Source of the DNA: Planctomycetota bacterium
GTDB lineage: Bacteria; Planctomycetota; Brocadiia; Brocadiales; Bathyanammoxibiaceae
NCBI GenBank assembly: GCA_016209685.1
Contig: JACQVQ010000006.1
Coordinates: 3,184 to 67,183 of the forward strand
Reading direction: 5' to 3'
Length of the DNA: 64,000 bases
In this document: one piece after another, positions 3,012-49,840 of the stretch
How the letters are laid out: each line of letters starts with the position of its first letter
Position numbering within the stretch: the first letter of the stretch is position 1
Position numbers and translations under genes: made by a program
The notes under the pieces: model-generated
Database searches by the model: none
Told to the model about the DNA's origin: nothing
What the model saw: the letters and a program-made list of their open reading frames with translations, nothing else

Positions 3012-5480
3012 ATGATATCAAGCCCAATAAAAGAGACCTCCATCCTTTACTCGCCTGATTACCATCGCTACAGCGTTGATAATTTAGCAATTCTACTTGA
3101 CCAGGAAGGCCCTAACTGGATAGGCGCCGATGCCCGTGGGGCAGAGATAATTGGCCTTCTTGATGGTAAAACCCCTTTAGGGGAGGTCGTCAGAACTTAT
3201 TCCTCAAGATACACGATGGAGAGCCCAAAGGCTTGGCTCCACGTCTATTCTTTTATAAGAGATGCCCTCAGACATCAGTTTGTATCTACTCAGCCTTTTC
3301 AAAGGGATAGTTACCCAGGCAGAGGTGCCTTCCTCTCTCTGAACGGGCTAAAAGAATTGTGGATTCATACCAACAACTCATGCAACCTTAGGTGCGCCCA
3401 TTGCCTGGTGGAGTCTTCTTCCTCCGGTGAATATGGGCTTTCTACTAGTGAACTGGCAGAGTTAATCCACCAGGCCAAGTCCCTGGGCGTTTCTCAGTTC
3501 TATTTCACAGGAGGAGAGCCTTTCCTAAGACCGGACCTCTTTCAGCTCTGCTCTTTCGCCATTGCCGGGGGGTCCAATGTAACCATTCTCACTAATGGTA
3601 CATTGATAAACAAAGAGACAGTAAAATGGCTAAATGCCCTTCCCCCAGGCTCAGTCAGGTTGCAGATAAGCCTGGACGGTTCTAAACCAGAGGTCAATGA
3701 CCCTATAAGGGGAAGGGGTAGCTTTGAAAGCATCCTTAGAGGCATCGGGGAGGCAGTACACGCAGGTCTTAGTCCCACTGTGGCTACAGTGCTTCTGCCA
3801 GAAAATTTGCATGACCTGCCAGAACTGCCAAGACTGCTCCACAATCTTGGTGTAACCACACATCACCTCCTTTACCCCCACCGAAGAGGGCGGGCCCTTC
3901 AAGCCCTGGGACAGCCCTCCATTGCGGAGCTGACAGAGGCCATATTTAGGGCAAGGGCGATGGCTTCGGAGTTAGGCCTAAGCATAGACAATTTTTCAGT
4001 CCTGGCTGACCGCCTCCATGCACCAAGATTTACCCAATTTGATTTAAGTACTGCCTGCTGGGATAGTCTCTGCGTCTATTCAAATGGAGAGGTTTATCCC
4101 TCCGCTGTATTCGCCGGCCATAAGGCCCTCTGTTGCGGCAATATAAGAGAGCGTTCGCTAGAGGAAATATGGCGCAGCAGTCCTACCTGTCAACTGGTAC
4201 GTTCTGCCACACTTCAGGATAAGTCCCACTGTCGGGCCTGTACTATTAAGTTCCTCTGTGGCGGTGGGGACATAGAATACGCCTACTTCGCCTCCCAGGC
4301 CAATCTCTTGGGTTTAGACCCTTACTGTGAGCTTTATAAAGAGATAATCTTCTGCCTGCTAAAGGAGTGGGTACAGGAGGCCCAAAGGAATTTAAATAGT
4401 GGTTCAAACCTCGATGCCCCCAGGGTCTATCTTGGTATGGGGGAGGGGGGTTTTTGCTGCCCGGAAGAAGCCACTCAGGCTGACGGGCCCTGGGTAAGGA
4501 CCATCCGCACTAATTGTACGGCCGGGCTGGATCGGGGACTCAAGCGCCAGGGACTACAGCAGTTCTATGCCCAGGCAGCAAAGCAACCTCAACAGGAACT
4601 CTGTTGCCCCTCCGCTTATCCCCCTGAGGAGACCCAACATGTCCCGCAGGAAGCCATAGAGAGGTTCTATGGATGTGGTGGCCCCCTGACCCTGGCGGGG
4701 TTGAGTCCGGGCGAGACCGTGCTTGACCTCGGCTCGGGAGCAGGCATGGATTGCTTTCTGGCCGCAAAAAAGGTGGGCCCTAATGGAAGGGTTTTCGGCC
4801 TGGACATGACGGATACCATGCTCCAGATATCTATGGAATACAAAGGCAAGGTCTCAGACAACTTGGGCTATGATGTAGTAAGGTTTATAAAGGGCTTCTT
4901 GGAGGAAATACCCTTTCGCTCAAGCTCGGCGGACCTGGTGATTTCCAACTGTGTAACAAACCTTTCTGCAGATAAAAGGAAGGTGTTTTCGGAGATATGG
5001 CGAGTGCTGAAAGACCAGGGCCGCTTTGTTATCTCAGACATTGTCTCAGAGACGGAGGTCCCCACCCGTTTTCGCTCCGACAAGCTCCTCTGGGGGCAAT
5101 GTCTGGCAGGGGCCCTTACGGAAGAAGAATTCCTCTGCTATCTTGAACAGGCGGGCTTCCGTGGCATTGAGATATTACATAGGCGCTACTGGAAGACGCT
5201 GGAGGGTTGCAGCTTTTTCTCCATTACCCTTCGTGGGTACAAACTTCAAGGGGCTGAACAGTGCTCCTACGATGGGCATGCGGCCATGTACTGTGGTCCC
5301 TTTAAGGCCGTGCTGGATGAAGAGGGCCACCTCTTCCCAAGGGGGGAAGCCGTTGAGGTGTGTACGGATACCGCAGAAAGACTCCAGAGGCCCCCTTATT
5401 CAAGGGCCTTTGTCATTTGCAGAACTGAACAACCTGAGGGCCCCCCCGCCAATTGTCATTCTCAGGAAAAGTGTTGCTAG
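3012..5480 (+). CDS. Fusion protein: PqqD/RRE-like N-domain + radical SAM core + SPASM domain + ArsM/AS3MT-type SAM-dependent As(III) methyltransferase domain
   Basis: A single 822-aa ORF with these motifs:
- PqqD-like: [34 protein letters not shown].
- Radical SAM: CNLRCAHC.
- SPASM: [14 protein letters not shown] plus a later DPYC.
- ArsM hallmarks: [43 protein letters not shown]. These match the human AS3MT motifs YYGCG, LDLGSGSGRDC, VVSNCVINL and LWGECLGGAL. Confidence 0.85.
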
Positions 5481-9383: not shown

Positions 9384-9444
9384 AAGCCTATGCTACGGCA
9401 GACTTAAACTTTTTGCTTTTTTAACTCCAGAAAGGAGGCTCAAA

Positions 9445-9927
9445 ATGCGCCACTTGCCTTCTGTCGTTTGGGTTCCGATACTTTTTTTCTTGCTTTCTCT
9501 GTTAGCTCAAGTAGAGGGGCAAGAAGTTAAGACTATAAACCTTAGGGCCTTAAACGACCTGCTGGGGGACAGACAAGGTAAAGTAGTGGTACTGGACTTC
9601 TGGTTCACTCGCTGACCCCACTGCCGGAGGGCGGTGCCCTTCCTTAACCAGATGTACGATACTTACAAAAACCAGGGCCTTGAGCTAATTGGACTTTCTA
9701 TAGATGAAGATGTAGAGGCCGTTAGGAGCTTTTTAAAAAAGGTGGAGATAAAGTACCCCGTCGTCGTTGCAGATCTGGACATTTCAGAGGAGTATGGAAT
9801 ACAGTTTGTACCGCATCATGTTTTTATAGATAGACAAGGCAAAAAGAGGGCTGAGGAGACAGGTTTTTCTGAGGAGGGGAAGGTAGAGTTCGAAACAAAG
9901 GTAAGGGAGTTACTAAAGGAAAGGTAA
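9445..9927 (+). CDS. Second secreted TlpA-like thioredoxin-fold selenoprotein (UGA 9613..9615 as Sec; U-P-H-C)
   Basis: The RBS aaaggagg lies before the ATG at 9445. I translated 9445..9612 by hand and found no stops: MRHLPSVVWVPILFFLLSLLAQVEGQEVKTINLRALNDLLGDRQGKVVVLDFWFTR. This is followed by UGA and then PHCRRAVPFLNQMY... in frame with ORF 9634..9927. It is a paralog of 5668..6156. Confidence 0.8.
9626..9642 (+). promoter_or_regulatory. Candidate SECIS hairpin for UGA 9613
   Basis: The same 17-nt hairpin, GGAGGGCGGUGCCCUUC, as at 5849..5865. It starts 10 nt after the UGA. Confidence 0.6.
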
Positions 9928-9974
9928 TCTTTCTGTAGAGTAAAAATGGGCGGTTATAATTAAACCTTCAGCTC

Positions 9975-10187
9975 TTGTTGCTAATGAGCTTTTCTCGGCC
10001 TTTGAAAGTTTGTGAGACTCACGAAGCTGATAAAGAGACGGGAACACTTTGGTTAGCCTTGGCCAGTGAAGCAATGGAGGGTAAGCTTGCAGCTAATGTC
10101 CTACGGCAAATACCCAGCATGATGGCCTTTTGGTTTGCCTGGGCGGATTATTTTCCAGAGACAAAGGTCTTTCAAGACGGAGGATAG
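9975..10187 (+). pseudogene. C-terminal fragment of a second DUF3179 gene
   Basis: DKETGTLWLALASEAMEGKLAANVLRQIPSMMAFWFAWADYFPETKVFQDGG aligns with the last ~55 residues of 976..2052 (DKETNTLWLVLTGEAVEGGLKGKNLQQIPIMVSFWFAWIDYFPETKVFQD). The upstream ~280 residues of the domain are absent. Confidence 0.6.
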
Positions 10188-10479
10188 AGTCTAAAACGTT
10201 TTCTGCCGAGGCTTAGGCTATTCTTGCCGAGAAGGCCTCCTTATCTTGTGGCTTTTAAACTCTTCCAAGTGCCTTCTACCGCAAAAGCCACTATTGAGTC
10301 CTTTACAGCACGAGGAGGCATCCCTTCGGCACATCTCGTCCACAAATCACGAGTAATGCACCCAGGGCTCACTCCCACTACTGTAACTTTTTATTATTTT
10401 GGAGCTTAAAACGGTTTCTTTACCGCTTGAACATGGAAACATAATGTGCTACTTTAACCTCGGAAAAGGGAGACTTCAA

Positions 10480-11889
10480 ATGTCATGTACCACAAAGTTG
10501 GTGTCGGCTTCACCCGCCATTAAAAAGATTATAATACCTTTGGCAGTATTTGGCATCGCTATCCTTGTATTGGATTTTTCATGGCCTGTTTTGGCTGCCG
10601 AAGATGTCGGGGCGATAAAAGAAAAGGCCAAATTCACTACTATTATGGACAAGTATGGGCTACCGCTTGCCATACTGTTTTCCTTCTGGTGGGGATTGCT
10701 TGCCAATATAGGCTCAGCCTGCATCTATCCCATGGTGCCTATTACTATCGGCTACTTTGCCAGTCAGGCAGAGACCCACGGGAAGGGATATACGGTGCTC
10801 CTCGCCTGGATGTTCGTCCTGGGGATAGCAACCCTTTACGCCCCTCTGGGGGTGCTTTCTGCCCTGGCAGGGAGGGATGTGGGTGCCTTACTGGGGAATC
10901 CCTTCTTCATCGGACCCTTTGTGGCCTTTCTCGTGGCCATGGCCCTCAGTATGTTCGGGCTATTTGAGATAAGGCTACCCGTCTTTCTTATGGACCGCTT
11001 CCATTCAGGGGGAAAGAAGACGGGAATTATTGGCACCTTTCTTATGGGCATGATCCTGGGTTTTGTGGCGGCGCCTTGTGTGGGTCCCTTTGCGGGTTCT
11101 ATCCTGGCCTTCGTGGCCACCACAGGTAATATCTTTGTGGGCCTGGCCAGTCTGTTCTTTTTTTCCCTGGGGCTGGGTATGCCTTATCTAGTGCTAGCTA
11201 TATCAGCCAAGAGCCTTGCCAGCCTGCCCAAGGCCGGGGAGTGGATAAACCGCATCAAACAATTTGCTGGGCTTGTACTCCTGCTGGTGGCCGTTTACTT
11301 CTTGAGCTTCATCATCCCCAAAGACGTTTCCTTCTTGCTGGCAGGAACGCTGGTACTTTTTATGGGTGTGTTTCTTGGCACACTGTCCTGGAGGGAGGCA
11401 TCTACTCCGGCCCTCTTCGGAAGAGGTGTTGGAATCCTGATAGGGGTTTGTGGTATTATGTTGTTCCTGCTCGGGCTACTGGGCCTCACGGGGCTATCGG
11501 GAAAATTGCCCATGACCCAGGCCCCGGGTGTACGAGCGGAGATTAAATGGGTGCCCTCCTTTGAGGAGGGTATGCGACTGGCAGGGGAGCAGGGCAGGCC
11601 AGTGTTTATAGACTTCTTTGCGGATTGGTGCCTCCCCTGCAAGGAGATGGAGGCCAATACCTGGAGGGACGAACGGGTCATAAAGGAATCGGAAAGGTTC
11701 GTTGCCATTAAAATGGACTCCTCCAAAGATGACAGTCCCGGCTCAAGGCTTAAGATAGAAAAATTCAATTCTTTTTATATACCCTACGTAGCCTTCTACG
11801 ACGCTAAAGGGAGCTATCTTGAGGGTAGGTCCATAGAAGGTTACGCAGACGCCGATACAATGCTTAAAGTAATGCAGACAATCCATTAA
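10480..11889 (+). CDS. DsbD-like thiol:disulfide electron conduit (CcdA-type membrane domain + C-terminal thioredoxin domain)
   Basis: The multi-TM core carries the two conserved Cys motifs (ACIYPMVP and APCVGPF). The C-terminal Trx domain has FADWCLPC. I prefer the ATG at 10480 (RBS aagggaga) over the maximal ORF start at 10399. No DsbD-alpha domain is visible. Confidence 0.8.
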   Translation: MSCTTKLVSASPAIKKIIIPLAVFGIAILVLDFSWPVLAAEDVGAIKEKAKFTTIMDKYGLPLAILFSFWWGLLANIGSACIYPMVPITIGYFASQAETHGKGYTVLLAWMFVLGIATLYAPLGVLSALAGRDVGALLGNPFFIGPFVAFLVAMALSMFGLFEIRLPVFLMDRFHSGGKKTGIIGTFLMGMILGFVAAPCVGPFAGSILAFVATTGNIFVGLASLFFFSLGLGMPYLVLAISAKSLASLPKAGEWINRIKQFAGLVLLLVAVYFLSFIIPKDVSFLLAGTLVLFMGVFLGTLSWREASTPALFGRGVGILIGVCGIMLFLLGLLGLTGLSGKLPMTQAPGVRAEIKWVPSFEEGMRLAGEQGRPVFIDFFADWCLPCKEMEANTWRDERVIKESERFVAIKMDSSKDDSPGSRLKIEKFNSFYIPYVAFYDAKGSYLEGRSIEGYADADTMLKVMQTIH

Positions 11890-11890
11890 C

Positions 11891-11982
11891 AAGGTTACAG
11901 GGAACGGGGCACAGGATACAGGGAAAAAGATTTTTACCTGTTCCCTGTTCTCTGTTCCCTGCTTCCTGTTTCCTGTTACCTT
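11891..11982. repeat. Tandem-unit hairpin (ACAGGRA units / complementary TCCTGTT units)
   Basis: AAGGTTACAGG...ACAGGATACAGGGAAAAAGATTTTTACCTGTTCCCTGTTCTCTGTTCCCTG...CCTGTTACCTT. The outer ends are complementary. It lies directly after the DsbD-like stop codon. Confidence 0.75.
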
Positions 11983-11999: not shown

Positions 12000-12326
12000 A
12001 TGGCCGAAATATTAGGGGTTACCGACGCTAACTTTAAGACAGAGGTTCTAGAGTCTCCCTCACCGGTGCTTGTAGATTTCTGGGCCACCTGGTGCGCCCC
12101 CTGCAAGCAGATGGCCGAGATACTTGATGGCCTGGTGCCGATATATAAGGGCAAGGTAAAGATGGTCAAGCTCAACGTGGATGAGGGGACCAAGGTCGCC
12201 GCCCAGTACGGCATAACGGCCATCCCCACCCTGATATTCTTTAAGGGAGGCAAGGAGGCCGGGCGGATGGTAGGCGTAGTCTCCAGGCAGAAGCTGGAGG
12301 AGAAACTCAAAGGGCTTGCTGGCTAA
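12000..12326 (+). CDS. trxA: Thioredoxin
   Basis: 108 aa. VLVDFWATWCAPCK active site, PTLIFFKGG, typical length, RBS aaggagggg. Confidence 0.9.
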   Translation: MAEILGVTDANFKTEVLESPSPVLVDFWATWCAPCKQMAEILDGLVPIYKGKVKMVKLNVDEGTKVAAQYGITAIPTLIFFKGGKEAGRMVGVVSRQKLEEKLKGLAG

Positions 12327-12955
12327 TGAAAAACTGCATTGCAAATTGTAAATTGCAGATTTTAAATTTCAAATTTTCAATTTGCATTTTACAATTAATT
12401 GTTTTCCTGGGCCTCCCTTCCCAGGCCCAGGCGGTGTGGAAGGAACTGACCCCCAAGCAATTCCTGGAGGCCATGGAATACGGTCAGAAAGAAAAAGACA
12501 AGGCTATGGTGGACTTTGCCAGGGAATGGACGGTGAACCTCGGGGAGCAGGTAGGCTGGGCCACGCTTTACACCCCGTTTCACAGCCTGGCCTACAAGGC
12601 CCGCAAGGCGGCCGTAGAGCACCGCGAATTAACGGAAAAGGAGATTAAGAAGGCCCTGGGGGACGGAGAGACGCTGACCTTCTCGGCCACTATCCTGTGC
12701 GATGCCCTTTACTACACACGCCAAAGACCGTCCACCCTGCATCAGGGAGAAAAGGTTGTGGCCTCCTCTTATGAGTTCCTCCCCGACGTCTGCGAGAACA
12801 GCAACTTTTTCCCGGAGTCCCCGGCCTACATGGCCTCTTGTGTGTATAGGTTCCCCCACAAAGACCTCTCTCTGGAAGCCCCCATAACCCTGGTGATAAT
12901 TACGCCTACTGGAGAGGAACGCCTCTTCCCCTTTGACCTGTCCGGGATACGCTAA
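12326..12955 (+). CDS. Hypothetical secreted protein
   Basis: A long ORF with coding-like composition. The signal-like segment ILQLIVFLGLPSQAQA is partly encoded by the hairpin repeat. The start is uncertain (ATG 12326 or TTG 12353). I recognised no family. Confidence 0.5.
   Translation: MKNCIANCKLQILNFKFSICILQLIVFLGLPSQAQAVWKELTPKQFLEAMEYGQKEKDKAMVDFAREWTVNLGEQVGWATLYTPFHSLAYKARKAAVEHRELTEKEIKKALGDGETLTFSATILCDALYYTRQRPSTLHQGEKVVASSYEFLPDVCENSNFFPESPAYMASCVYRFPHKDLSLEAPITLVIITPTGEERLFPFDLSGIR
12334..12396. repeat. Tandem-unit hairpin (TTGCAAA/TTGTAAA units)
   Basis: GCATTGCAAATTGTAAATTGCAGATTTTAAATTTCAAATTTTCAATTTGCATTTTACAATT. It lies just after the trxA stop and overlaps the 5' end of ORF 12326. 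Confidence 0.7.
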
Positions 12956-13565: not shown

Positions 13566-13580
13566 TCCGCCTCAGGCGGA
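13566..13580. repeat. TCCGCC-N3-GGCGGA palindrome
   Basis: TCCGCCTCAGGCGGA, a perfect 6+3+6 palindrome. Confidence 0.8.
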
Positions 13581-13599
13581 TATCTCGTTGGTGCAGGGC

Positions 13600-20710: not shown

Positions 20711-20981
20711 TACTTTGTTCTTTCTCTGTTGCTTTTCTGTTCTTTCTCTGTCTCCTTTTTTTCTCCCTCTTCTCTCTTTTGTCTCTTTAGGATGTCTTGT
20801 AGCTAGCGGAGGAGCACCTTCTGCCGTTTTTCTAACACACTCTTTCCATTATTAACTCAATAGTTGCACGTGACTTGGGACAAAAACGAAACAAGATTTC
20901 AACATCCCTGGGCTGCCTTAGGGTTAAGAATTAGGTAAAAAGAAACCAAAACTAAATATAAGAAGAGAGAGGATAACAACC
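20711..20981. other. dnaA-dnaN intergenic region; candidate oriC or part of it
   Basis: This is the only sizeable non-coding DNA adjacent to dnaA, since the upstream gene abuts dnaA. It contains a pyrimidine tract and an A+T-rich 3' part (aagaattaggtaaaaagaaaccaaaactaaatataagaag). I could not confirm consensus DnaA boxes by eye. Confidence 0.3.
20713..20788. repeat. Strand-asymmetric polypyrimidine tract with an internal 13-nt direct repeat
   Basis: By hand count, the 76 nt on the + strand contain 70 C/T, 6 G and 0 A. GTTCTTTCTCTGT occurs at 20717..20729 and 20739..20751. Confidence 0.85.
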
Positions 20982-27434: not shown

Positions 27435-28919
27435 ATGGGCCTTTTCTCCTCAGAGTATGAGCGGCTAGTAAGATTGGTTTTAACGCCCGCTGTCTTTGAA
27501 CAGGAAGGGGTCAGCCGGCAGATTACGGAGGAGGTGGTGCGCTGTCTGTGGTACGGCAGGCACTTCCTTCAAGGGAGGCTTCATACTGAGGATGGTTCCC
27601 GTCTGGAGGTCCTCTCCCCAGGCCGGTGGAACAAGGGGGGCGGGCCAGACCACGCAAATGCGGAGATACTGCTGGAGGGCAGGGGGCACCTGAAGGGGGA
27701 CGTAGAGGTCCACCTACTATCCTCCGATTGGCGACGGCACGGGCACGACAAGCAAGAGGGTTACACCAGGGTATGCCTACATGTAGTCTTCTGGAATGAT
27801 GAGGGCGGGGGCTTTGTCAAAGACCTCCACGGTAGGGATATACCCCAGCTAGCACTCTCCAGACACATTAACCTCCCGGTGGAAGAACTGCCGGGGCCAT
27901 GCCAGGAATTACTCCAGCAACGGGCCAGGTACGAACACTGGCTCGGCCATCTACTTGAGCAGGCGGGGGACCAGCGGATAATTGCCAGGGCACAAAGGAT
28001 GGAGGGGCGTCTTGAGGGGCAGTCTTTTGAAGAGATACTGTACCGTAGCCTTATGGAGGCCATGGGGTACAAGAGCAATGTGGTAGGCTTCTCCCTCCTT
28101 GCAAGCCGTGTCAGCCTGGGAGACCTCCGCCGTTTGGTGCCGGTGGATGCTAATGAAAGGGAGACCGCCTCCTGGATACAGGCCCTCCTCCTCGGGGCGT
28201 CAGGGATACTACAAAAGTGGTCTAATAAGGATTTCCAGGATAAGGAGAGCAAAAGGTATTTTGCCTCTGTTTGTGGGCTGTGGAAGGGGCTTCAAGGGAA
28301 GTGGTCAGGAGAGATGCTCTCCCCCGAGGTATGGCGATGGGAAGGTACCCGTCCATTTAATTCCCCTCCCAGGAGGCTGGCTGCCATGAGCGCCCTATTG
28401 GCAAGGGGCCTTGAAAAGGGCCTGTTCAGGGAATTTTTATCCCCACTTGAGGAGGCAAAAGGCGGAGATAAAGGGGACGTGCGAGGGGTAATAAAGAAAC
28501 TGGAGACCATCTTCCTTAGCCTGGAAGACCCCTTTTGGTCTTATCATCTGGTCCTCGGCGGGAATAGGCGTAAGACCCCGGCCAGACTGGTGGGGCGTGA
28601 GCGGATGGCCATCCTGTTGATAAATGTCATTATTCCACTCCTGCTCCTCTACGCCAGGAGGCATGAGGATAAGGAGACGGAAGGGGTACTCCACGAGATA
28701 TATAGCCAATACCCCAGGCTACAGCCCGACAGCATCGTAAGGTTTATGACCGAGCGGATAGTCCCCGAAAAGTCCGCAAAGATTGTTAACTCTGCCCGCC
28801 GACAACAGGGCCTCCACCAGCTATACAGAGACTTCTGCCAGAGGGGGGACGTGAGGTGTGATAGGTGCGGGTTTTATTTGGCACTTGGGGATAGGGGGCG
28901 GCGGCCGTTTTCGTTGTAG
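27435..28919 (+). CDS. DUF2851 family protein
   Basis: LEVLSPGRWNKGGGPDHANAEILLEG...GDVEVHLLSSDWRRHGHDKQEGYTRVCLHVVFW matches the DUF2851 N-terminal signature as recalled. The C-terminal motif CDRCGF is present. Confidence 0.7.
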   Translation: MGLFSSEYERLVRLVLTPAVFEQEGVSRQITEEVVRCLWYGRHFLQGRLHTEDGSRLEVLSPGRWNKGGGPDHANAEILLEGRGHLKGDVEVHLLSSDWRRHGHDKQEGYTRVCLHVVFWNDEGGGFVKDLHGRDIPQLALSRHINLPVEELPGPCQELLQQRARYEHWLGHLLEQAGDQRIIARAQRMEGRLEGQSFEEILYRSLMEAMGYKSNVVGFSLLASRVSLGDLRRLVPVDANERETASWIQALLLGASGILQKWSNKDFQDKESKRYFASVCGLWKGLQGKWSGEMLSPEVWRWEGTRPFNSPPRRLAAMSALLARGLEKGLFREFLSPLEEAKGGDKGDVRGVIKKLETIFLSLEDPFWSYHLVLGGNRRKTPARLVGRERMAILLINVIIPLLLLYARRHEDKETEGVLHEIYSQYPRLQPDSIVRFMTERIVPEKSAKIVNSARRQQGLHQLYRDFCQRGDVRCDRCGFYLALGDRGRRPFSL

Positions 28920-28944
28920 GGGCAGGTTTAAAACCTGCCCCTAC
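28916..28944. repeat. GTAGGGGC...GCCCCTAC palindrome (AGGTTTAAAACCT core); probable bidirectional terminator
   Basis: GTAGGGGCAGGTTTAAAACCTGCCCCTAC. It contains the TAG stop of DUF2851 (28917..28919) and the complement of the rseP stop (28941..28943). Confidence 0.85.
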
Positions 28945-30770
28945 TGATACATCGCCAGCAACCGCATGACATCGTTCCTCGTAGCGAAGAGGAGGAGGGC
29001 GAGGAGGAGGGCCATGCCTATGTATTGAGCGAAGGCCATGGTACGCTCGCTGAGGGGGGAGCCCTTTATCTTCTCTATGCCCAGGAAGAGGAGATGTCCG
29101 CCGTCCAGCATGGGGATAGGTAGGGCGTTCAGGATAGCCAACTGGAGGCTGAGGATGCCAATAAAGTAGAGCAGCTTCCCCATACCCAGCTTGGCCGATT
29201 CATAGGTGGCCTGGGCAATCATGATGATGCCCCCCACCGTCTCACTGGAGACCTGCCGGGTGAGGAGGGCCTTCATGGAGAGGTATATCCTTTGGGTCAT
29301 GACGATGGCCTTGTGGGTGCCCGCCTGACAGGCCCCAATGAAACCATATTGTTTCTCTACGGATTTCTCTTTTAGTCTTATCCCGAGCCTCCCCATGGCC
29401 CCCTCTGTGTCCTTCCTGGGGCGGAACCTGGCGGTGAAGGTCTCCCCGCCTTTGTCACCGGCGGTCCCACTGCCCCTGCGCCACTGGACTTCCATTTCTT
29501 TCCCTTCGCAGGTGGCGATAATCCTCAGGAGGTCTTCCCACCTCTTCAGGCCTTCTCCGCGGAGGGAGAGTAGTTCGTCCCCGGGCCTTATGCCAAGCTC
29601 CTGGGCTGGGAAGCCCTCTACTACGTGGTCAACCCTTAGCCCCATGGCAGGGACGACCCCCTCAAGGAGGTTCCTGGCATCCCCAGGCACGTCCAGAGAG
29701 AGGACTTCCTTCCCCCGTTTCAGGGTCAGGTTGGGGGTCTTTCCTCCTGGGGTGGGCAGTTCGCTTGTGGCAGATTTCAGGGCAGTCCAGCCAGAGACCT
29801 CTTTTCCGTTGACCTTAAGTAGCACGTCTCCTTTTTTAAGCCCTACCTTTGCCGCCAGGCTTTCTTGCTGGAGGGACTGTATTTTTGTTGAGGCGCAGGA
29901 GACCCCGAGCATCCACCGGGGCGTGCTGAGGGGGGTTACCTTGACCTCTTGTTTTTCCCCCTGTCTGAGCACGGTTAAAGTCAACTCTTTGCCAGGGTTG
30001 TTCGCCTCTATTTCCCTGATTTTTTCCCCTGCCTCTACGCCCTCCCCATTGATGGCGATAATCTCGTCGCCGGCCTTCAGACCCGCCTCCTTAGAGGGAG
30101 AGCCATCGGGGTACTGGAGTATGTGGCCTATCTCTCTGCTGAGGGCCGGGCTTATGCCTATGCGTTGCATCCCCTGGGCCTCATCATATCTAGGTGAGAC
30201 CGTAAAGCCCAGGAGCTGGTTATCCCGTTCCACAAGGAGGGAGATTTTCGCTGCAGGACTGCCCAGGGCTATGGAGGTGAAGATGTCCTCAAAGTCTGGG
30301 TTACGCTTCCCGTTAAGCCGGACGATTTTATCTCCGGGTTTTAGGCCCGTCTCCCAGGCCGGCCAGCCAGTAGAGACCTCCCCTATCTCTGAGGTGATGA
30401 AGGGGACGCCTATCTGGAAGGCAATGACGAACGCAATGAAGGCCAGCAGGGCGTTAAGCCCCACCCCGGCTAACAGTACCAGCGCCCTCTGATGGGCAGG
30501 TTTCGCCATAAAATCCCCGGGTGCCAGAGGGGCCTCCTTTTCCGGGTGTTCGCCGGCCAGTTTTACGTAGCCTCCGAGCGGGATGGCGGAGAGCCTGTAG
30601 TCGGTCTCCCCCCATACCCTACTCCAGAGGGCTGGCCCGAAGCCCATGGAGAAGACGTGTACCTTTACCCCAATCCACTTGGCGGCCAGGAAGTGGCCCA
30701 GCTCGTGGACGAAGATGAGGGTGCCTATGCCCAGGATTACCAGCAGTATATTTGTAGACGTCTCAGTCAT
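28941..30770 (-). CDS. rseP: RIP metalloprotease RseP (site-2 protease, M50) with four PDZ-like modules
   Basis: HELGHFLAAK near the N-terminus and NALPIPMLDGGHLLF near the C-terminus. Four G-[LI]-[KR]-x-GD motifs are present: GLKPGDKIV, GLKAGDEII, GLKKGDVLL, GIRPGDELL. Confidence 0.85.
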   Translation of the reverse strand: MTETSTNILLVILGIGTLIFVHELGHFLAAKWIGVKVHVFSMGFGPALWSRVWGETDYRLSAIPLGGYVKLAGEHPEKEAPLAPGDFMAKPAHQRALVLLAGVGLNALLAFIAFVIAFQIGVPFITSEIGEVSTGWPAWETGLKPGDKIVRLNGKRNPDFEDIFTSIALGSPAAKISLLVERDNQLLGFTVSPRYDEAQGMQRIGISPALSREIGHILQYPDGSPSKEAGLKAGDEIIAINGEGVEAGEKIREIEANNPGKELTLTVLRQGEKQEVKVTPLSTPRWMLGVSCASTKIQSLQQESLAAKVGLKKGDVLLKVNGKEVSGWTALKSATSELPTPGGKTPNLTLKRGKEVLSLDVPGDARNLLEGVVPAMGLRVDHVVEGFPAQELGIRPGDELLSLRGEGLKRWEDLLRIIATCEGKEMEVQWRRGSGTAGDKGGETFTARFRPRKDTEGAMGRLGIRLKEKSVEKQYGFIGACQAGTHKAIVMTQRIYLSMKALLTRQVSSETVGGIIMIAQATYESAKLGMGKLLYFIGILSLQLAILNALPIPMLDGGHLLFLGIEKIKGSPLSERTMAFAQYIGMALLLALLLFATRNDVMRLLAMYQ

Positions 30771-30777
30771 AGTCGTT

Positions 30778-30842
30778 AAAATTCAGGGTACAGGATTCAG
30801 GATACAAAATATTCTGCGTCCTGACTACTGAATTTTGTATCC
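30778..30842. repeat. Tandem-unit hairpin (TTCAGGR units), intercistronic between dxr and rseP
   Basis: AAAATTCAGGGTACAGGATTCAGGATACAAAATATTCTGCGTCCTGACTACTGAATTTTGTATCC. GGATACAAAAT and ATTTTGTATCC are perfectly complementary. Confidence 0.75.
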
Positions 30843-30849
30843 TTTCTTC

Positions 30850-32001
30850 TCATTTTGGGAGGTTTTTCCTCGCCTCTTCCCTGGCCCACTGGTCGGCCGC
30901 AAGGATTTCCCCCAGGGAAGGGTGTTCGCACTTTTTGTGACGGTCCATGGTGCCCTCTGTTATGGGTACGATATCCGTGAGTTTGATCCGCCTGTCCAGG
31001 AAGGCCTCCACCGCCACCTCATTGGCGGCGTTGAGTACGGCCGGGATAGTCCCTCCCTCAGAGACTGCCCTGTAACCCAATCGCAGGGCGGGGAACCTTT
31101 CCATGTCGGGTTTAAAGAAGGTAAGCCCGCCGAGTTTGGGCAGGGAGAGCGGTTCTACGGGGGCGGGCCTCCTCTGGGGGTAAGTGAGGGCATACTGGAT
31201 GGGGAGTTTCATGTCCGGCAGGCCCATCTGGGCTATTACTGAACCGTCCTGGAATTCTACCATGGAGTGGATTATGGATTGGGGGTGGATTACTACGTCT
31301 ATTTGTTGGGCCTCCAGCCCGAAGAGCCATTTGGCCTCTATTATCTCCAGGGCCTTGTTTATCAAGGTGGCAGAGTCAATGGTTATCTTTTTCCCCATCT
31401 GCCACGTTGGGTGCTTGAGGGCCTGTTCAGGGGTGACGTCCCGGAGTGCCTCTCTTGGATACTCACGGAAGGGTCCGCCTGAGGCAGTGAGGATTACCTT
31501 TCTTAATTCGCTCCGCTGGCCCGCCAGGAGGGATTGAAAGATGGCGGAGTGTTCACTGTCCACGGGGAGCAGTTTTACGCCCATCTTACTGGCCAGACTG
31601 GTCACAATCTCGCCGGCCACTACCAGGGCCTCCTTGTTGGCCAGGGCAAGGGACTTCTTTTCTTTTATGGCGGCCAGGGTGGCGGGGAGGGCGGCCGCCC
31701 CGACTATGGCGGATAGTACGAAGTCTACATCTTCTCCAGAGGCCAACTCCTCCAGGGAGTCTTCCCCGGCAAGTATTTCTACAGAGTTCGTTGAGACCTT
31801 TCTCTTCAGGAGGCGGTAGGATTCCTTATCCACGATGGCCACCCTGCTGGGGCGGAAGTCCGCCACCTGTTGGGCAAGCAGTTCCCAGTTCTGGTGGGTG
31901 GAAAGGGCGGTGACCCGGTAATCCCCGCCCAGGGAGCGGACCACCTCCAGGGCGTTCCTCCCGATAGAGCCTGTAGAGCCAAGGATGGCTATCCTTTTCA
32001 T
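30850..32001 (-). CDS. dxr: 1-deoxy-D-xylulose-5-phosphate reductoisomerase
   Basis: MKRIAILGSTGSIGRNALEV start, LANKEALV, DSEHSAIFQ, NAANEVAV. I chose the start at 32001; the 17 codons further upstream in the maximal ORF (to 32052) translate the hairpin repeat. Confidence 0.92.
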   Translation of the reverse strand: MKRIAILGSTGSIGRNALEVVRSLGGDYRVTALSTHQNWELLAQQVADFRPSRVAIVDKESYRLLKRKVSTNSVEILAGEDSLEELASGEDVDFVLSAIVGAAALPATLAAIKEKKSLALANKEALVVAGEIVTSLASKMGVKLLPVDSEHSAIFQSLLAGQRSELRKVILTASGGPFREYPREALRDVTPEQALKHPTWQMGKKITIDSATLINKALEIIEAKWLFGLEAQQIDVVIHPQSIIHSMVEFQDGSVIAQMGLPDMKLPIQYALTYPQRRPAPVEPLSLPKLGGLTFFKPDMERFPALRLGYRAVSEGGTIPAVLNAANEVAVEAFLDRRIKLTDIVPITEGTMDRHKKCEHPSLGEILAADQWAREEARKNLPK

Positions 32002-32077
32002 AATTTCGGATTTCGGATTTCGGATTGTGGATTGCGAAGTTCCAAATTCCAAATTCCAAATCCGAGATTCAAAAATT
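32002..32077. repeat. Tandem-unit hairpin (TTTCGGA units / TTCCAAA units), intercistronic between ispG and dxr
   Basis: AATTTCGGATTTCGGATTTCGGATTGTGGATTGCGAAGTTCCAAATTCCAAATTCCAAATCCGAGATTCAAAAATT. Confidence 0.75.
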
Positions 32078-32083
32078 TTCCTT

Positions 32084-33160
32084 TCATGACATACTCTCTA
32101 TCTCGTGGAGGAGCTGGCTCACCATCTCCGACTCTGGAATCTTTTTGACCCTCTCGCCCTTCTTGAATAGGAGTCCGAAGCCGTGGCCCCCGGCTATCCC
32201 GATGTCACATTCCTGGGCCTCCCCGGGGCCGTTGACGGCACAGCCCATAATGGCTATCTGGAGGGCCTTTTTCTCAGGGGGCAACTTGGCCTTCACCTCT
32301 TCCACTATCTTCACGAGGTCAATCTCGCATCGCCCACAGGTGGGGCAGGAGATAAGTTCCCAGCCCTCGTGTTCCCGGAGACCCAGGGCCTGGAGGATGT
32401 CCAGTCCTGCCTTTATCTCCTCATGGGGCCGGCCGGTTATGCTGACCCTGAGGGTATCGCCGATACCCTCCGACAGGAGGCCGCCTATGCCTATGGCAGA
32501 TTTTATTATGGAGCTGGAGGCTGGCCCCGCCGCCGTAACTCCCAGATGAAGGGGGTAATCGCATTGCCTGGCAACCTCTCTGTAGGCCGCCATGGTGGTA
32601 GGAACGTCGGAGGCCTTCAGGGAGAGGACGATGTCCCTGAAGCCCAGGGACTCAAAGTGCTCGCAGTAGCGGAGGATGGTCTCTACCATAAGTTTGGCCA
32701 GCGGCTCCTCTTCCTGGCCTGGGGACTTGACGGAGCCGGAATTAACCCCTATCCGTATCGGTATGCCCTTATTTTTGGCGGCCCGGACCACTTCTTCTAC
32801 CTTAGCCTTGTCCTTCATGTTGCCCGGGTTGATGCGTATCTTGTCTACCCCCTGGGCTATGGCCTCCAAGGCGAGTTGAGGGCTGAAGTGGATGTCTGCC
32901 ACCACGGGGATGCGCGTCCGCCGCTTTATCTCTCCCAGACAGCGGGCGGCCTTAGGCGTGGGTACTGCCACGCGGATAATCTCACAGCCCATCTCCTCTA
33001 GCTCTTTTATCTGGGCTGAGGTATCCTCTATATCCTCCGTGTGGGTCTTGGTCATGGACTGTATGGAGACAGGGGCATCGCCACCTATCTGCACACAGTT
33101 TTTATCGGGAGTGGCCCCGCCACCCACGCTGACTGGCCGGGTACGTCGTCTTTCTATCAT
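32084..33160 (-). CDS. ispG: 4-hydroxy-3-methylbut-2-en-1-yl diphosphate synthase
   Basis: 358 aa. IGGDAPVSIQSMTKT, RVAVP, RINPGN, SCPTCGRC, IAIMGCAVNGPGEA. Confidence 0.92.
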   Translation of the reverse strand: MIERRRTRPVSVGGGATPDKNCVQIGGDAPVSIQSMTKTHTEDIEDTSAQIKELEEMGCEIIRVAVPTPKAARCLGEIKRRTRIPVVADIHFSPQLALEAIAQGVDKIRINPGNMKDKAKVEEVVRAAKNKGIPIRIGVNSGSVKSPGQEEEPLAKLMVETILRYCEHFESLGFRDIVLSLKASDVPTTMAAYREVARQCDYPLHLGVTAAGPASSSIIKSAIGIGGLLSEGIGDTLRVSITGRPHEEIKAGLDILQALGLREHEGWELISCPTCGRCEIDLVKIVEEVKAKLPPEKKALQIAIMGCAVNGPGEAQECDIGIAGGHGFGLLFKKGERVKKIPESEMVSQLLHEIESMS

Positions 33161-33381: not shown

Positions 33382-34833
33382 ATGAGACTGACTCGCTTTC
33401 CCTGTCTACTGTTTACTATCTACTGTCTACTAGTTTTGGGTCTGGAGACCCAAAACGACCCGGGTGCCATTGCCCAGGAGTGGGCGCCCAGCTGGCAATT
33501 GCCCCAGCGGGACCGGCCGGCCAATATCATTGAGGCCCCGATTACGGGTCGTGGGGAGATGCCAGAGGGCCGGTTCTTCCCCCCGATTATATGTGGGGCA
33601 TGTCACACGGATATCTTTCAGCAATGGAAAGGCTCCACACATGCCTATGCATGGTATGACCCGCTCTTTAGGGCCCTTTACCAAAAGGGTCTCCAGGAGG
33701 CCCAGGGAGAACAGCAAAGGGTCGTCATGGACACCTGCGTCCGCTGTCACTCCCCTGTGGGTTTCACCACCGGGGAATGGAAGGCCACGCCTTCCACGCC
33801 AGGCAGTGAGGCCAGTAAGGAGAATATCTTCTGTGATTTCTGCCACTCAGTAAAGGCTACTACGGGCATAGGCAATGCCCCTTTTATTGTAGACCCCGGG
33901 GATGCCGTAAAGATGGACTTCGGCACCAAACGGGGTCCCTTTAAGGACTGCCCCACGACCGCCCACAAGACGGAGTATTCTGAACTCCACACCCGTTCGG
34001 AATTCTGCGGCTCCTGCCATGACGTATCTCATGCCGGGAGCAGGTTGGCAGTAGAACAGACCTATACGGAGTGGCGTCTGGGACCCTACAATACTGGTAA
34101 TCCTGCCACCACGACACATTGTCAGGACTGCCACATGAGACAGAGACCAGGCGTGCCCTCCACAGGTTCAACGGAGAGGCCAGATAATCCGGGCTTTGCC
34201 GCAAAGAAGGAAGTAGGGGGCATAGAGAGGCCCCACATCTGGACCCATTATTTCGTGGGCGGTACCAGCCTTATCCTAGGTCCCATCCTCCAGGAGCCCG
34301 AGAGGCAAAAGATGGCCGAGGACAGGCTAAAAAATGCCGCCAGGGTGGAGCTGATAACGCCCACCGCTATAAAACCCGGGGAGTTGCTCAGGTTCAGGGT
34401 AATGGTAGAAAACGTGGGTGCGGGACACTACATCCCCACGGGGCTTACGGAGGTGCGTCAGATGTGGCTGGACGTGGCCGTGGCGGACGCCGATGGTAAG
34501 GAGGTCTATCGCTCTGGTACGGTGGATGAGAGGGGACACCTGGAGGAGGATGCCGTCGTATATCACACCATCTTTGGTAACGAGAAGGGACAGCCCACGT
34601 ATAAGATATGGGAGGCCACCCACATCATCTCTGATTATCGGGTCCCCCCAAAGGGGCAGAGGGTGGAGAAGTATGCCTTCCTGCTCCCCCCAGACATCAA
34701 ACTACCACTGAAGATAAAGGCCGTGCTCCGCTACAGGAGTGCCCCGCAGTGGCTGGCGGGGGAACTCCTGGGGGATGGAGCCCCCACTATACCCATTGTG
34801 GATATGGCAGAGGCGACAGCCGCAGTGCAGTAG
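33382..34833 (+). CDS. Secreted pentaheme c-type cytochrome
   Basis: It has a signal peptide and five CxxCH motifs: CGACH, CVRCH, CDFCH, CGSCH and CQDCH. The ~200-aa C-terminal domain has no heme motifs. Confidence 0.8.
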   Translation: MRLTRFPCLLFTIYCLLVLGLETQNDPGAIAQEWAPSWQLPQRDRPANIIEAPITGRGEMPEGRFFPPIICGACHTDIFQQWKGSTHAYAWYDPLFRALYQKGLQEAQGEQQRVVMDTCVRCHSPVGFTTGEWKATPSTPGSEASKENIFCDFCHSVKATTGIGNAPFIVDPGDAVKMDFGTKRGPFKDCPTTAHKTEYSELHTRSEFCGSCHDVSHAGSRLAVEQTYTEWRLGPYNTGNPATTTHCQDCHMRQRPGVPSTGSTERPDNPGFAAKKEVGGIERPHIWTHYFVGGTSLILGPILQEPERQKMAEDRLKNAARVELITPTAIKPGELLRFRVMVENVGAGHYIPTGLTEVRQMWLDVAVADADGKEVYRSGTVDERGHLEEDAVVYHTIFGNEKGQPTYKIWEATHIISDYRVPPKGQRVEKYAFLLPPDIKLPLKIKAVLRYRSAPQWLAGELLGDGAPTIPIVDMAEATAAVQ

Positions 34834-37541: not shown

Positions 37542-37551
37542 TTAGCAAACA

Positions 37552-37660
37552 GGGGGCAGGCACCGATTGCGGAATGCATTCTTAGTGCGGAATGTAGAAT
37601 GCGGAATGCGGAATTAAATTCTTCAAATTCCACACTCCGAATTCACCATTTGCCCCGTAG
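37552..37660. repeat. Tandem-unit hairpin (GCGGAAT units)
   Basis: ...GATTGCGGAATGCATTCTTAGTGCGGAATGTAGAATGCGGAATGCGGAATTAAATTCTTCAAATTCCACACTCCGAATTCACC... It uses the same unit type as 49841..49914. Confidence 0.75.
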
Positions 37661-37764
37661 ATTTCAGTTGCATTTTGGGGGCTTTTTGCTAAAATCTTGC
37701 TCTTAATAAGAAGTATCTAAGATGCTTCTGTGATTGTGGTTTACGGAAAGGATGCGCAGGCAAA

Positions 37765-49819: not shown

Positions 49820-49840
49820 TGCCACCACAGATTGCAGAGT

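Follow-up and report, generated by a model that had tools for sequence, protein, structure and literature searches.

The DNA analysed here is a 64-kb window from the genome of an uncultured bacterium of the Brocadiales (Planctomycetota; Hypogeohydataceae / 'Ca. Tripitaka' group), which we compared with short pieces of relatives' DNA. It carries nine imperfect inverted repeats, E1 to E9, whose arms consist of 3-6 tandem 7-nt units placed around an A/T-rich centre. All nine had been listed in a first-pass annotation and lie where it had put them, to within a few bases. The unit length, which had been given as 7-8 nt, is exactly 7 nt in a lag scan, and Tandem Repeats Finder likewise reports period 7 for every one of the nine. 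A tenth array, D10 (forward strand, 33402-33431), which the annotation had missed, consists of four direct CTGTCTA units upstream of a multihaem cytochrome gene and is followed by an ordinary 10-bp hairpin (33433-33456). Its ortholog is found in one relative (L112, 1319-1349), and in another (L106) the corresponding position is occupied by a heptamer hairpin unrelated to it.

The first two elements lie on the forward strand on either side of trxA. E1 (11887-11982) lies between the stop codon of a DsbD-like gene (11887-11889) and the Shine-Dalgarno sequence and start of trxA (12000), and is an ACAGGRA-type hairpin with 34 predicted pairs (-45.7 kcal/mol, z = -6.0), made of about four CAGG units in the 5' arm and about six CTGTTYC units in the 3' arm. 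E2 (12334-12396), directly after the trxA stop, is an AT-rich hairpin of the ATTGCAA type (-17.7 kcal/mol, z = -2.5) situated in the 5' end of the ORF 12326-12955, where its 3' arm provides the codons for the hydrophobic core of a signal peptide. In the sister species (L001), the place of E1 is taken by a REP-like GTAGGGGC...GCCCCTAC hairpin and that of E2 by a different hairpin with a 14-nt period. In L018-L022, five further assemblies of this species, E1 and E2 show no base difference, which excludes an assembly artefact. The 73-kb contig DBJWZG010000004.1 of assembly GCA_052361005.1, which seems to span the window, is likewise identical over all that was compared at trxA and its 10-kb flanks.

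E3 and E4 lie on the reverse strand, at both ends of dxr. E3 (30777-30842), a TTCAGGA-type hairpin (-26.9 kcal/mol, z = -5.7), lies between the dxr stop and the rseP start. In the sister L103 it differs by a single loop change in 65 nt, against a 10% third-codon divergence of the flanking genes, and it is missing from L104-L107, in which dxr and rseP overlap. E4 (32002-32077), an ATTTCGG/TTCCAAA hairpin (-26.4 kcal/mol, z = -3.3), occupies the whole ispG-dxr spacer and abuts the dxr ATG (32001). It is missing from L103 and L104, where the ispG-dxr junction is an ATGA overlap, and in L106 the spacer measures 33 nt and contains a short proto-hairpin, AATTTC...GAAATT. Both elements abut the start of the next gene, rseP or dxr, without a Shine-Dalgarno sequence.

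The remaining elements are all on the forward strand. E5 (37551-37658) follows the ktrA stop and had been listed as a hairpin of the GCGGAAT type at 37552-37660; we observe an AATGCGG-type heptamer hairpin (core 37586-37640) nested within an outer GGGGGCA/TGCCCC stem. A conserved promoter-like sequence, TTGCAT-N16-TAAAAT (37668-37695), lies downstream. Compared with the L112 ortholog, the flanks and outer stem of E5 are nearly identical and the interior is altered by indels; L106 has no heptamer element at the site. E6 (42151-42246), a GAATTCA/GGATTCA-type hairpin after the queH stop (-38.9 kcal/mol, z = -5.8), sits in the 5' end of a SpoIID-like lipoprotein ORF, in which its 3' arm codes for ILNPVFCILILFCLSSC; its 5' arm has four units here and five in the L110 ortholog.

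E7 (48644-48729), again of the ACAGGRA type (-46 kcal/mol, z = -7.2), begins 4 nt past the secDF stop. Its site has three different contents among relatives, namely the same type in L111, GTAGACA/CTGTCTA units in L110 and two ordinary hairpins in L108 and L109, even though secDF of L110 is 96.8% identical. The 3' arm of E7 differs from that of L111 at about 3 of 55 nt, whereas the adjoining 600 nt of secDF are 84% identical. E8 (49841-49914), an AATGCGG/CCGAAAT hairpin (-36.3 kcal/mol, z = -5.5), lies in the variable N-terminal region of a BamB-like ORF (49718-51076) between two TCCGCC-N4-GCGGAT mini-hairpins (49805-49820 and 49920-49935), and is missing from L108, L110 and L111. Finally, in E9 (58285-58353) four GGGGTYA units make up a G4-N3 x4 quadruplex motif and are matched only in part by a short complement; the 3' tail of a response-regulator ORF (stop 58337-58339) contains the 5' arm.

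The predicted stems of the nine hairpins are 22-36 bp long, with small internal loops about every 7 nt and terminal loops of 3-13 nt, and the RNA folding energies range from -17.7 to -46 kcal/mol. Against dinucleotide shuffles, seven of the nine give z-scores between -3.3 and -7.2; the fold of E2 is weak by this measure, and that of E9 (z = -0.8) is no better than shuffles. In every element G exceeds C in the 5' arm and C exceeds G in the 3' arm. The annotation had proposed that the repetitive arms can pair in several registers, which holds only weakly. Shifts by multiples of 7 account for 25% of the predicted pair probability in E9, 14% in E8, 10% in E4, 5% in E1 and about 0% in the rest. A multi-register RNA switch, which we considered, is unsupported, the shifted registers being minor in the predicted folds. 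We also compared sense and antisense stability through the asymmetry between G-U and A-C pairs; the sense strand is favoured in five elements and the antisense strand in three, with one tie, so that the sense-strand G-U excess is inconsistent (5 vs 4) and gives no direct indication of selection at the RNA level. Rfam 15 covariance models yield no match to the elements at gathering thresholds, and at E <= 1 the only model to respond is a plant miRNA precursor, which matches E1 by chance (24.9 bits, where its gathering threshold is 73).

An autocorrelation scan (at least 16 of 21 matches, lags 4 to 15 compared, block shuffles as control) detects 14 lag-7 arrays at 10 loci of the window, against a mean of 0.1 in the shuffles. 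Each of the other lags gives 0-4 arrays, with the exception of the harmonic 14. At least five unit types occur within these 64 kb, and nine of the ten loci are paired, D10 being the direct array. A metagenome search with dxr returned matches of at most 58% identity and no close relatives, and its 80 loci served solely as background. In unrelated metagenomic DNA totalling 869 kb we count 41 heptamer arrays against 0-15 for other periods, and the (unit)n-loop-(complement)n design is also present in unrelated metagenomic contigs.

The background excess would be expected if the elements were pure mutational debris, produced by local 7-nt slippage around small palindromes that already existed, with neither copying between sites nor function. 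The proto-hairpin of L106 at the E4 site could be such a starting point; moreover, the two arms amplify differing unit variants, their unit counts are unequal, and presence or absence varies among close relatives. Nevertheless, independent slippage does not predict that nine of ten array loci are paired, nor does debris account for the G-rich-5' orientation of all nine elements or for the loops, ends and unit order that family members have in common at different loci. E3 and the E7 3' arm are also more conserved than the flanking synonymous sites. We regard this explanation as unlikely.

With respect to genes, the stems of seven of the nine elements begin 0-27 nt past an upstream stop codon, that of the DsbD-like gene, trxA, dxr, ispG, ktrA, queH or secDF, which agrees with the earlier remark that most copies lie just past stops. 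All nine occupy co-directional junctions, and none is found in the approximately 11 divergent or convergent junctions of the window. They had been called intergenic, which is only partly right: when the longest ORFs are taken, E2, E6 and E8 fall inside their 5' ends, in a signal-peptide or pre-signal region, and the 5' arm of E9 overlaps the 3' end of an ORF. An origin-of-replication role was also considered, as dnaA and dnaN are in the window, and set aside: the elements range from 11.9 to 58.3 kb and show no clustering at these genes.

The positions after stops would fit ordinary terminators or stabilisers of mRNA 3' ends, each evolved independently, with the repetitive arms as an incidental by-product. 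The promoter-like site after E5, which would place this element at the end of a transcription unit, is in line with that proposal, as are the ordinary hairpins at the E1, E5 and E7 sites of relatives. However, no T-run follows the stem of any of the nine elements (the tails read AAATTAAGG in E1 and GATAAAAGG in E7), terminator scans call none of E1-E9, and none of them lies at a convergent junction. The transcription-unit context is mixed, since E5 precedes the promoter-like site and E1, E3 and E4 lie within apparent operons, at junctions where the two genes are tightly coupled or overlapping in relatives. By sequence, E1-E9 are not canonical intrinsic terminators, and the terminator role put forward in the annotation is not supported.

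The elements are also related to one another in ways that bear on this point. Three families align end to end within the window (E1/E7, E3/E6 and E4/E5/E8), and elements of the same type are homologous over their full length, loops included. Between E8 and the E5 ortholog in L112, 54 of 59 positions agree, among them an exact 31-mer running across the loop, and a homolog of E6 with identical unit order is present at a non-orthologous site (L104, 19114). Neither of these likenesses is explicable by independent origin, and we find it rather improbable that the elements are terminators or stabilisers of the ordinary kind. A homolog of E2 occurs at another non-orthologous site (L113, 5044), the left flank of E9, GTGGCCCAGACC, recurs together with its array at L114 7058 in another gene context, and an array similar to E9 lies at L113 ~5010, also in another gene context. 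About six unit types recur in the clade (ACAGGGA, TTCAGGA, CGGAATG, GGGGTCA, ATTGCAA and CTGTCTA). The elements had been described as a conserved design with non-conserved sequence; the design is indeed common to elements whose units differ, but the units come in these recurrent families. The accompanying suggestion that more is at work than the evolution of ordinary terminators is borne out by the period-7 enrichment, the full-length homology with loops, the recurrence at non-orthologous sites and the turnover of sites.

Overall, E3 is conserved at orthologous sites, E4 and E8 are absent from them, E5 and E6 are resized, and in place of E1, E2 and E7 relatives have either an ordinary hairpin or units of a different type; E3, E4, E8 and E1 are gains where relatives have no element. 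Unit number differs between related genomes in E6, and the interior of E5 differs by indels; the five same-species assemblies show no unit-number polymorphism, suggesting that slippage is not fast on the time scale of strains. Paralogous copies are 70-92% identical, indicating either that copying is rare or that remodelling is fast afterwards. Heptamer hairpins and the REP-like GTAGGGGC hairpins that this genome also carries appear to be interchangeable. The fewer changes in E3 and the E7 3' arm than in the flanking coding sequence may be listed in support of constraint on these two.

Dispersal could also be due to mobility, the elements being non-autonomous, MITE- or REPIN-like, and moved by a RAYT or an IS200/IS605-type hairpin transposase encoded elsewhere. 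Such a mechanism is consistent with dispersed families that keep their arm order at non-orthologous sites, with the recent gains of E1, E4 and E8, with the small hairpins nested in or flanking elements, and with two independent Logan contigs (L020 and L022) that both begin 87 nt before trxA, within the E1 5' arm, as assemblies typically break at repeats. A REP-like family with GTAG...CTAC ends, GTAGGGGC-N-GCCCCTAC, co-occurs in 6 copies, against 0.04 expected. That family is separate, however, and the GTAG/CTAC signature is missing from the heptamer hairpins. Filled and empty sites of E1, E3, E4 and E8 look like segment replacements rather than clean insertions, with no clean target-site duplications or sharp reproducible ends, and the defined terminal inverted repeats plus target-site duplications of a MITE are not found. 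The copies fall short of near-identity, no transposase, CsrA or Csp gene is seen among the window ORFs scanned, and Pfam scans of the flanking and the previously unannotated window ORFs give no transposase. Taken together, this makes such mobile elements highly improbable.

Binding is a further alternative, in which the arrays would serve a factor that reads 7-nt periodic single strands, such as a cold-shock-domain protein, S1 or a CsrA-like protein (for GGA units), or would adopt non-B structures such as a G-quadruplex in the G-rich arm, and the complementary arm would act as a built-in competitor. Most 5'-arm units do contain GGA or GGG (ACAGGGA, TTCAGGA, TTTCGGA, GCGGAAT), and the 5' arm of E9, whose hairpin is not significant, is a canonical G4-N3 x4 motif. 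CspB binds as one protein per heptamer, and Csr and S1 have been proposed for TAACTGA repeats (PMC4679880), while quadruplexes have been shown for GGGAATC repeats (PMC4692102). Nevertheless, eight of the nine elements are predicted to keep their G-rich units in stable pairs, with one register dominant, and units as different as TTGCAAA, CTGTCTA and GGGGTCA make a single sequence-specific factor unlikely. A unit of the quadruplex type (at least four G3+ tracts, GGGAATC-like) is found only in E9 (GGGGTTAGGGGTCAGGGGTCAGGGG), the other eight falling short, and the window ORFs scanned contain no candidate protein. We consider binding arrays very unlikely.

The explanation that we favour, at slightly better than even confidence, is that these are small dispersed palindromic repeats of the STRR kind, copied and remodelled by 7-nt slippage, which act at most as REP-like post-gene stem-loops. 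Whole elements would now and then be copied to new sites; E8 would be a copy of an ancestral E5, and E1 resembles an ancestral E7. Their interiors would be remodelled in place, as 7-nt units are gained, lost or replaced by replication slippage with its known 7-nt bias, and the arms would slip largely independently, so that they are only partly complementary. Elements would persist where a fold-back is tolerated, that is, after stops in co-directional junctions and in N-terminal signal-peptide regions, where the pyrimidine-rich arm would be translated as hydrophobic residues. Once transcribed, they would form stems of 22-36 bp without a U-tract, and any function would presumably be that of a generic post-gene or intercistronic stem-loop, in 3'-end protection, operon punctuation and possibly the stalling of terminating ribosomes.

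A broader reading, which we hold to be improbable, is that the elements belong to a hitherto unrecognised self-propagating class that crosses phyla (Planctomycetota, Xanthomonas, cyanobacteria and many uncultured bacteria) and is spread by a dedicated mechanism, either a single-strand hairpin transposase or a template-switching polymerase that would add 7-nt units to both arms. An insert of this design would fold out of the mRNA and draw its flanks together, and could therefore land in operon junctions or N-terminal coding sequence without abolishing expression. E3 and E4 would exemplify this: each separates two genes whose reading frames overlap in relatives, and neither leaves a Shine-Dalgarno sequence behind. 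On this reading, the constant placing of the G-rich arm on the 5' side would be the footprint either of the mechanism or of an avoidance of Rho loading.

To return to the STRR-like reading, the elements may be classed with heptanucleotide repeats of a known kind, the nearest of which, as judged from sequence, are the cyanobacterial STRR and the GGGAATC inverted pairs of Xanthomonas. Heptanucleotide repeats have reportedly been known since 1990, as STRR. These are said to form several families per cyanobacterial genome, dispersed in non-coding DNA, to be limited to heterocystous cyanobacteria and to consist mostly of direct arrays of CCCCAGT, TTGGTCA or CAACAGT. In rnpB, they reportedly lengthen the RNA helix P12, with unrelated repeats at the same site in closely related strains. 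Like STRR, the elements described here have exact 7-nt tandem units in a limited number of families dispersed in copies (three multi-copy families in 64 kb), and relatives carry differing arrays at one site (E1 and E2 vs L001, E7 in L108-L111, and the cytochrome 5' site vs L106). Unlike STRR, they occur in the Brocadiales, not in a heterocystous cyanobacterium, and do not use the canonical STRR1-3 units.

REP, BIME and REPIN elements are conserved palindromes of 20-40 nt that bear the signature GTAG/CTAC, come with a RAYT gene and have no internal 7-nt periodicity; in E. coli, REPs stabilise the upstream mRNA. REPs within about 15 nt of a stop codon are said to stall ribosomes. The heptamer hairpins are likewise dispersed post-gene hairpins in operons, without a U-tract, but the GTAG/CTAC signature in this window belongs to the separate GTAGGGGC...GCCCCTAC family.

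The GGGAATC repeats of Xanthomonas and the GGGGA(Y)T repeats of Nostoc are tandem 7-nt units, mostly intergenic, with hundreds of copies per genome (Rehm et al. 2015, PLoS One, PMC4692102). Each Xanthomonas genome has 70-75 convergent pairs of heptamer arrays on opposite strands; the majority are transcribed, and between close species the single or inverted type usually persists even as length and sequence change (PMC4692102). The conserved design is therefore not new in itself. E1-E9 share the (unit)n-spacer-(complement)n arrangement, with adjacent and convergent complementary heptamer arrays and the G-rich arm first. Nevertheless, Xanthomonas and Nostoc genomes have one dominant G-quadruplex-forming unit, whereas the present window has several unit types with E9 alone of the quadruplex type, nearly all arrays here are paired, and the host is a member of the Planctomycetota. 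Neither duplicative dispersal nor an overlap with codons for signal peptides, as seen here, is described for the Xanthomonas and Nostoc repeats (PMC4692102).

More generally, heptamers are the most abundant class of long SSRs in bacteria and are favoured among units of 5-11 nt, which has been attributed to slippage of a polymerase that contacts 7 nt (Mrazek et al. 2007, as reported in PMC4679880 and PMC4692102). The period-7 bias of the metagenomic sample matches this picture. As far as those two accounts present it, that work concerns direct tandem arrays, and palindromic pairing, dispersed families and arm orientation are outside its subject. The TAACTGA heptamers of marine Beggiatoaceae, cyanobacteria and Bacteroidetes are found in spacers that abut start codons, often without a Shine-Dalgarno sequence, with some copies inside ORFs (MacGregor 2015, PMC4679880). 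E3, E4 and the elements inside ORFs resemble them in these respects. The TAACTGA repeats have a single unit, lie upstream of starts and include one inverted case in 170 sets (PMC4679880), whereas the elements here have several units, form inverted pairs and are mainly found after stops. A grammar common to all of our heptamers, an A/T-rich triplet followed by NSRG, was set aside because free choice of rotation and strand invites over-fitting.

These elements give heptanucleotide repeats a new host at the level of the phylum, and the relatives provide comparative snapshots of how such repeats may change: a probable copying of E5 to give E8, changes to the interior while the flanks stay conserved (E5 and E6), a site with three alternative contents, one of which (L110) has a neighbouring secDF of about 97% identity (E7), entry into gene junctions where relatives have an overlap (E3 and E4), and a pyrimidine-rich arm used as signal-peptide codons (E2 and E6). 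If the proposed operon punctuation or ribosome stalling is true, REP-type regulation would extend to a very different class of repeat. There are also consequences for annotation. Terminator predictors will miss heptamer hairpins or score them as false matches, short-read assembly is affected, as the two contigs that start within E1 illustrate, and the elements mislead the calling of gene starts; the ORF after trxA, for example, is called differently between assemblies.

The nine heptamer hairpins, each made of tandem 7-nt units, a loop and complementary units, lie where the first-pass annotation had placed them and share the single design that it proposed: E1 (11887-11982), E2 (12334-12396), E5 (37551-37658), E6 (42151-42246), E7 (48644-48729), E8 (49841-49914) and E9 (58285-58353) on the plus strand, and E3 (30777-30842) and E4 (32002-32077) on the minus strand. 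Its unit length of 7-8 nt has to be narrowed. Tandem Repeats Finder gives period 7 for all nine elements. In an autocorrelation scan of the window (cut-off at least 16 of 21 matches), lag 7 accounts for 14 arrays, spread over 10 loci, against 0-4 arrays for each other lag from 4 to 15, the harmonic 14 excepted, and a mean of 0.1 in block shuffles; this dominance of lag 7 indicates a unit of exactly 7 nt. The tenth locus (33402-33431) carries a direct CTGTCTA x4 array with no paired arm. Five further same-species assemblies show E1 and E2 without a single base change, so these two are not assembly artefacts. The feature is real and statistically robust.

RNA folding energies of the nine elements range from -17.7 to -46 kcal/mol, with stems of 22-36 pairs, terminal loops of 3-13 nt, and small symmetric internal loops that interrupt the stems about every 7 nt. 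Compared with dinucleotide shuffles, seven elements have z-scores of -3.3 to -7.2, the E2 hairpin is weak (z = -2.5), and E9 folds no better than the shuffles (z = -0.8); a G4-N3 x4 quadruplex motif is the better description of its 5' arm. Pairing in several registers, suggested from the repetitive arms, is weakly true: registers shifted by 7n hold 25% of the pair probability in E9, 14% in E8, 10% in E4 and 5% in E1, and about 0% in the rest.

The flanking proteins identify the host as an uncultured Candidatus Brocadiales bacterium, with 'Ca. Hypogeohydataceae' and 'Ca. Tripitaka' as its nearest named relatives. All nine hairpins occupy co-directional gene junctions, and none of the ~11 divergent or convergent junctions of the window carries one. 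Most had been described as directly following stop codons, and 7 of the 9 stems indeed begin 0-27 nt past the upstream stop. The term intergenic is not strictly correct for E2, E6, E8 and E9. E2, E6 and E8 fall within the 5' ends of the longest ORFs. In E2 and E6 the 3' arm, which is pyrimidine-rich, codes for a signal-peptide hydrophobic core, that of E6 being ILNPVFCILILFCLSSC of a SpoIID-like lipoprotein. E9 has its 5' arm in the sequence for a response regulator's C-terminal tail. The ~1-kb stretch that precedes the DsbD-like gene (9384-10398) contains only a short ORF (9634-9927), and this gene is called as two genes in the same-species sequence L018, despite being identical to the window wherever compared.

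The minus-strand cluster has the order ispG-E4-dxr-E3-rseP. In relatives, from a comparison with L103-L107, ispG/dxr and dxr/rseP overlap (ATGA, and a TTG start overlapping a TGA stop), whereas 80-90 nt hairpins separate them in the window (32001-32086 and 30770-30852). Where E4 and E3 split these overlapping pairs, dxr and rseP have no Shine-Dalgarno sequence upstream, which raises the question of how these downstream genes get translated. The E3 or E4 stem would bring the upstream stop near the downstream start, which could explain why such insertions are tolerated.

The terminator role proposed by the first-pass annotation did not hold up. There is no T-run 3' of any stem and a stem-plus-T-run scan returned none of the nine, so we rejected a set of canonical terminators; an Rfam search of the elements also returned nothing. 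Only E5 stands at an evident transcription-unit end, with a promoter-like TTGCAT-N16-TAAAAT (37668-37695) downstream that is conserved in relatives. Separately, a conserved hairpin CTCATGCCATAGG...CCTATGGTGAG followed by CTTTTAT (48746-48815) directly precedes the LysM gene's Shine-Dalgarno sequence, and may act as an attenuator or be a 5'-UTR structure. L108-L110 also have it, the loop holding an insert that varies, and L111 has a different hairpin, GCCTCCGGCGG...CGCTGGGGCG, at this position.

We lean towards identifying the elements as dispersed palindromic repeats similar to the short tandemly repeated repetitive (STRR) families of cyanobacteria. Whole elements would occasionally be copied to new sites, be continually remodelled via 7-nt slippage, and be retained where fold-back is tolerated. 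Three groups align end to end within the window (E1/E7, E3/E6 and E4/E5/E8), and about six unit types cover all arrays seen in the clade. E8 matches the L112 ortholog of E5 at 54 of 59 positions, including an exact 31-mer, GTGCGGAATTTAACTCCGCATTCCGAAATCC, across the loop. Its match to the window's own E5, which has since been remodelled, is poorer. The orthologous gene in L108, L110 and L111 lacks E8, which together with the L112 match makes E8 a recent copy of an ancestral E5. E1 and the E7 of L111 have one loop in common, GGGAAAAAGA-TTTT, and E1 is absent from the sister species. The E6 arms, with variant units in the same order, recur at a non-orthologous L104 locus. An E2 homolog with a CCGCCTGAGGCGG mini-hairpin nested in its loop lies between trkH and ktrA in L113, and the left flank of E9, GTGGCCCAGACC, recurs with its array after a cytochrome gene in L114. 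Filled and empty sites compared for E1, E3, E4 and E8 gave no clean target-site duplications or fixed ends, and no transposase appeared among the window ORFs scanned with Pfam. Two independent short-read assemblies (Logan contigs L020 and L022) both begin 87 nt before trxA, at the same point inside the E1 5' arm; assemblies typically break at sequence repeated elsewhere in the genome.

Orthologous sites show turnover. The sister species (dxr 95.7% nucleotide identity) has E3, changed at a single loop position out of 65 nt, against 10% third-codon divergence in the flanks (binomial P ~0.009), suggesting constraint. E3 is absent in four more distant relatives, in which dxr and rseP overlap. E4 is absent in the sister species, where ispG/dxr overlap (ATGA), and L106 has at this site a 33-nt spacer with a short AATTTC...GAAATT hairpin. 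In L112, E5 retains its flanks and outer GC stem, and its interior differs through indels. Unit number does vary between orthologous sites, a comparison that the first-pass annotation had pointed to: the window's E6 has 4 units and that of L110 has 5, and the element is evolving more quickly than the rest of its gene (87% versus 96% identity). The E7 site has ACAGG units in the window and the distant L111, GTAGACA/CTGTCTA units in L110, even though secDF is 96.8% identical, and a pair of ordinary hairpins in both L108 and L109. At the E1 site the sister species carries a REP-like (extragenic palindrome) hairpin, and at the E2 site a different hairpin, of 14-nt period. The two arms of one element often carry different amplified unit variants in unequal numbers, which points to slippage within each arm rather than arm-to-arm copying.

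In all nine elements the G-rich (purine-rich) arm is 5' and the C-rich arm 3'. Since a palindrome reads the same on both strands, this orientation belongs to the element itself and does not depend on gene direction. Most, not all, similar elements in relatives and other bacteria obey the rule, and the Xanthomonas pairs, always convergent (Rehm et al., PMC4692102), are read here as having the same orientation. We speculate that a C-rich arm emerging first might load Rho, and one emerging second would be paired at once.

Once transcribed, the elements would be expected to fold into long, interrupted stems directly behind stop codons, which makes a REP-like role (3'-end protection, operon punctuation, possibly stalling of the terminating ribosome) the most plausible one, although we hold any function with far less confidence than the STRR-like identity and its evolutionary account. 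Such a role is consistent with the conservation of E3 and part of E7, and with the REP-like hairpin substituting at the E1 site.

Cyanobacterial STRR families are the classical example of such repeats; some of them extend the P12 helix in RNase P RNA and are not the same from one close strain to another. According to the summaries in PMC4679880 and PMC4692102, no class of long SSR is more abundant in prokaryotes than that of heptanucleotides, a bias attributed to polymerase slippage, with 7 nt as the contacted length. A Xanthomonas genome has ~185 GGGAATC arrays, among them 70-75 convergent inverted pairs that could fold into stem-loops; most are transcribed, and they vary between close species with the type preserved (PMC4692102). 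The architecture and evolutionary behaviour of heptamer pairs are thus already on record, and we rejected a novel class in favor of this heptanucleotide STRR or inverted-heptamer-pair kind. What differs in Brocadiales is the host, the several unit families and the almost obligatory pairing. In 869 kb of unrelated metagenomic contigs (dxr at most 58% identical), lag-7 arrays number 41, against 0-15 for each other period from 5 to 12, and exactly the same hairpin design occurs in L051, L050, L058, L084, L085, L044 and L025. The heptamer hairpins of the window give useful comparative evidence of how such repeats disperse, are remodelled in place and undergo coding exaptation.

In five of these contigs, which are probably interrelated and so not independent, CGTAAAT x3-4 arrays run up to the start of dxr. 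L057, L071 and L083 have a complementary GATTTAC array 300-400 nt further upstream, giving long-range inverted arrays that bracket a short region; in L085 the partner is ~25 nt upstream, giving a local hairpin, and in L047 none was detected.

Other small repeats occur nearby. In the dnaA-dnaN spacer (20716-20776), a polypyrimidine tract (TGTTCTTTCTC) shows a tandem period of 11/22 nt and may be related to the replication origin region; no clean GC-skew switch was seen there. Six hairpins in the window, versus 0.04 expected, form another family (28916-28944, 39109-39136, 55885-55912, 57150-57178, 57614-57642 and 60449-60475), with further copies in the sister-species sequence L001 (160-186 and 2271-2298). 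Its members consist of GTAGGGGC, a self-complementary centre that varies, and GCCCCTAC. The family shows a REP-like GTAG/CTAC signature, lies mostly right after gene ends (groEL, a TPR/RpoA-CTD gene), also at a convergent junction, and occupies the E1 site in the sister species. Mini-hairpins TCCGCC-N4-GCGGAT occur at four loci versus 0.01 expected (13566-13581, 43445-43460, 49805-49820 and 49920-49935), also at ~58346-58360, and in L113 (~5075-5090) and L114 (10760-10810). Two flank E8, one follows E9 and one lies in the loop of the E2-like L113 element, a nesting that recalls the small dispersed repeats within Nostoc heptamer arrays. Finally, a 26-nt hairpin-containing segment, CCGCCCAAAATATGGCGGATTTTCAA (49949-49974), lies inside a 27-nt in-frame insertion of the BamB-like ORF that is absent in L108. 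The 18-nt core of the segment, CCGCCCAAAATATGGCGG, is found again in L109 (4802-4819), within the non-coding spacer that precedes this gene; flanking bases there extend the match to ~27 nt, and the segment may be a very small mobile insert.
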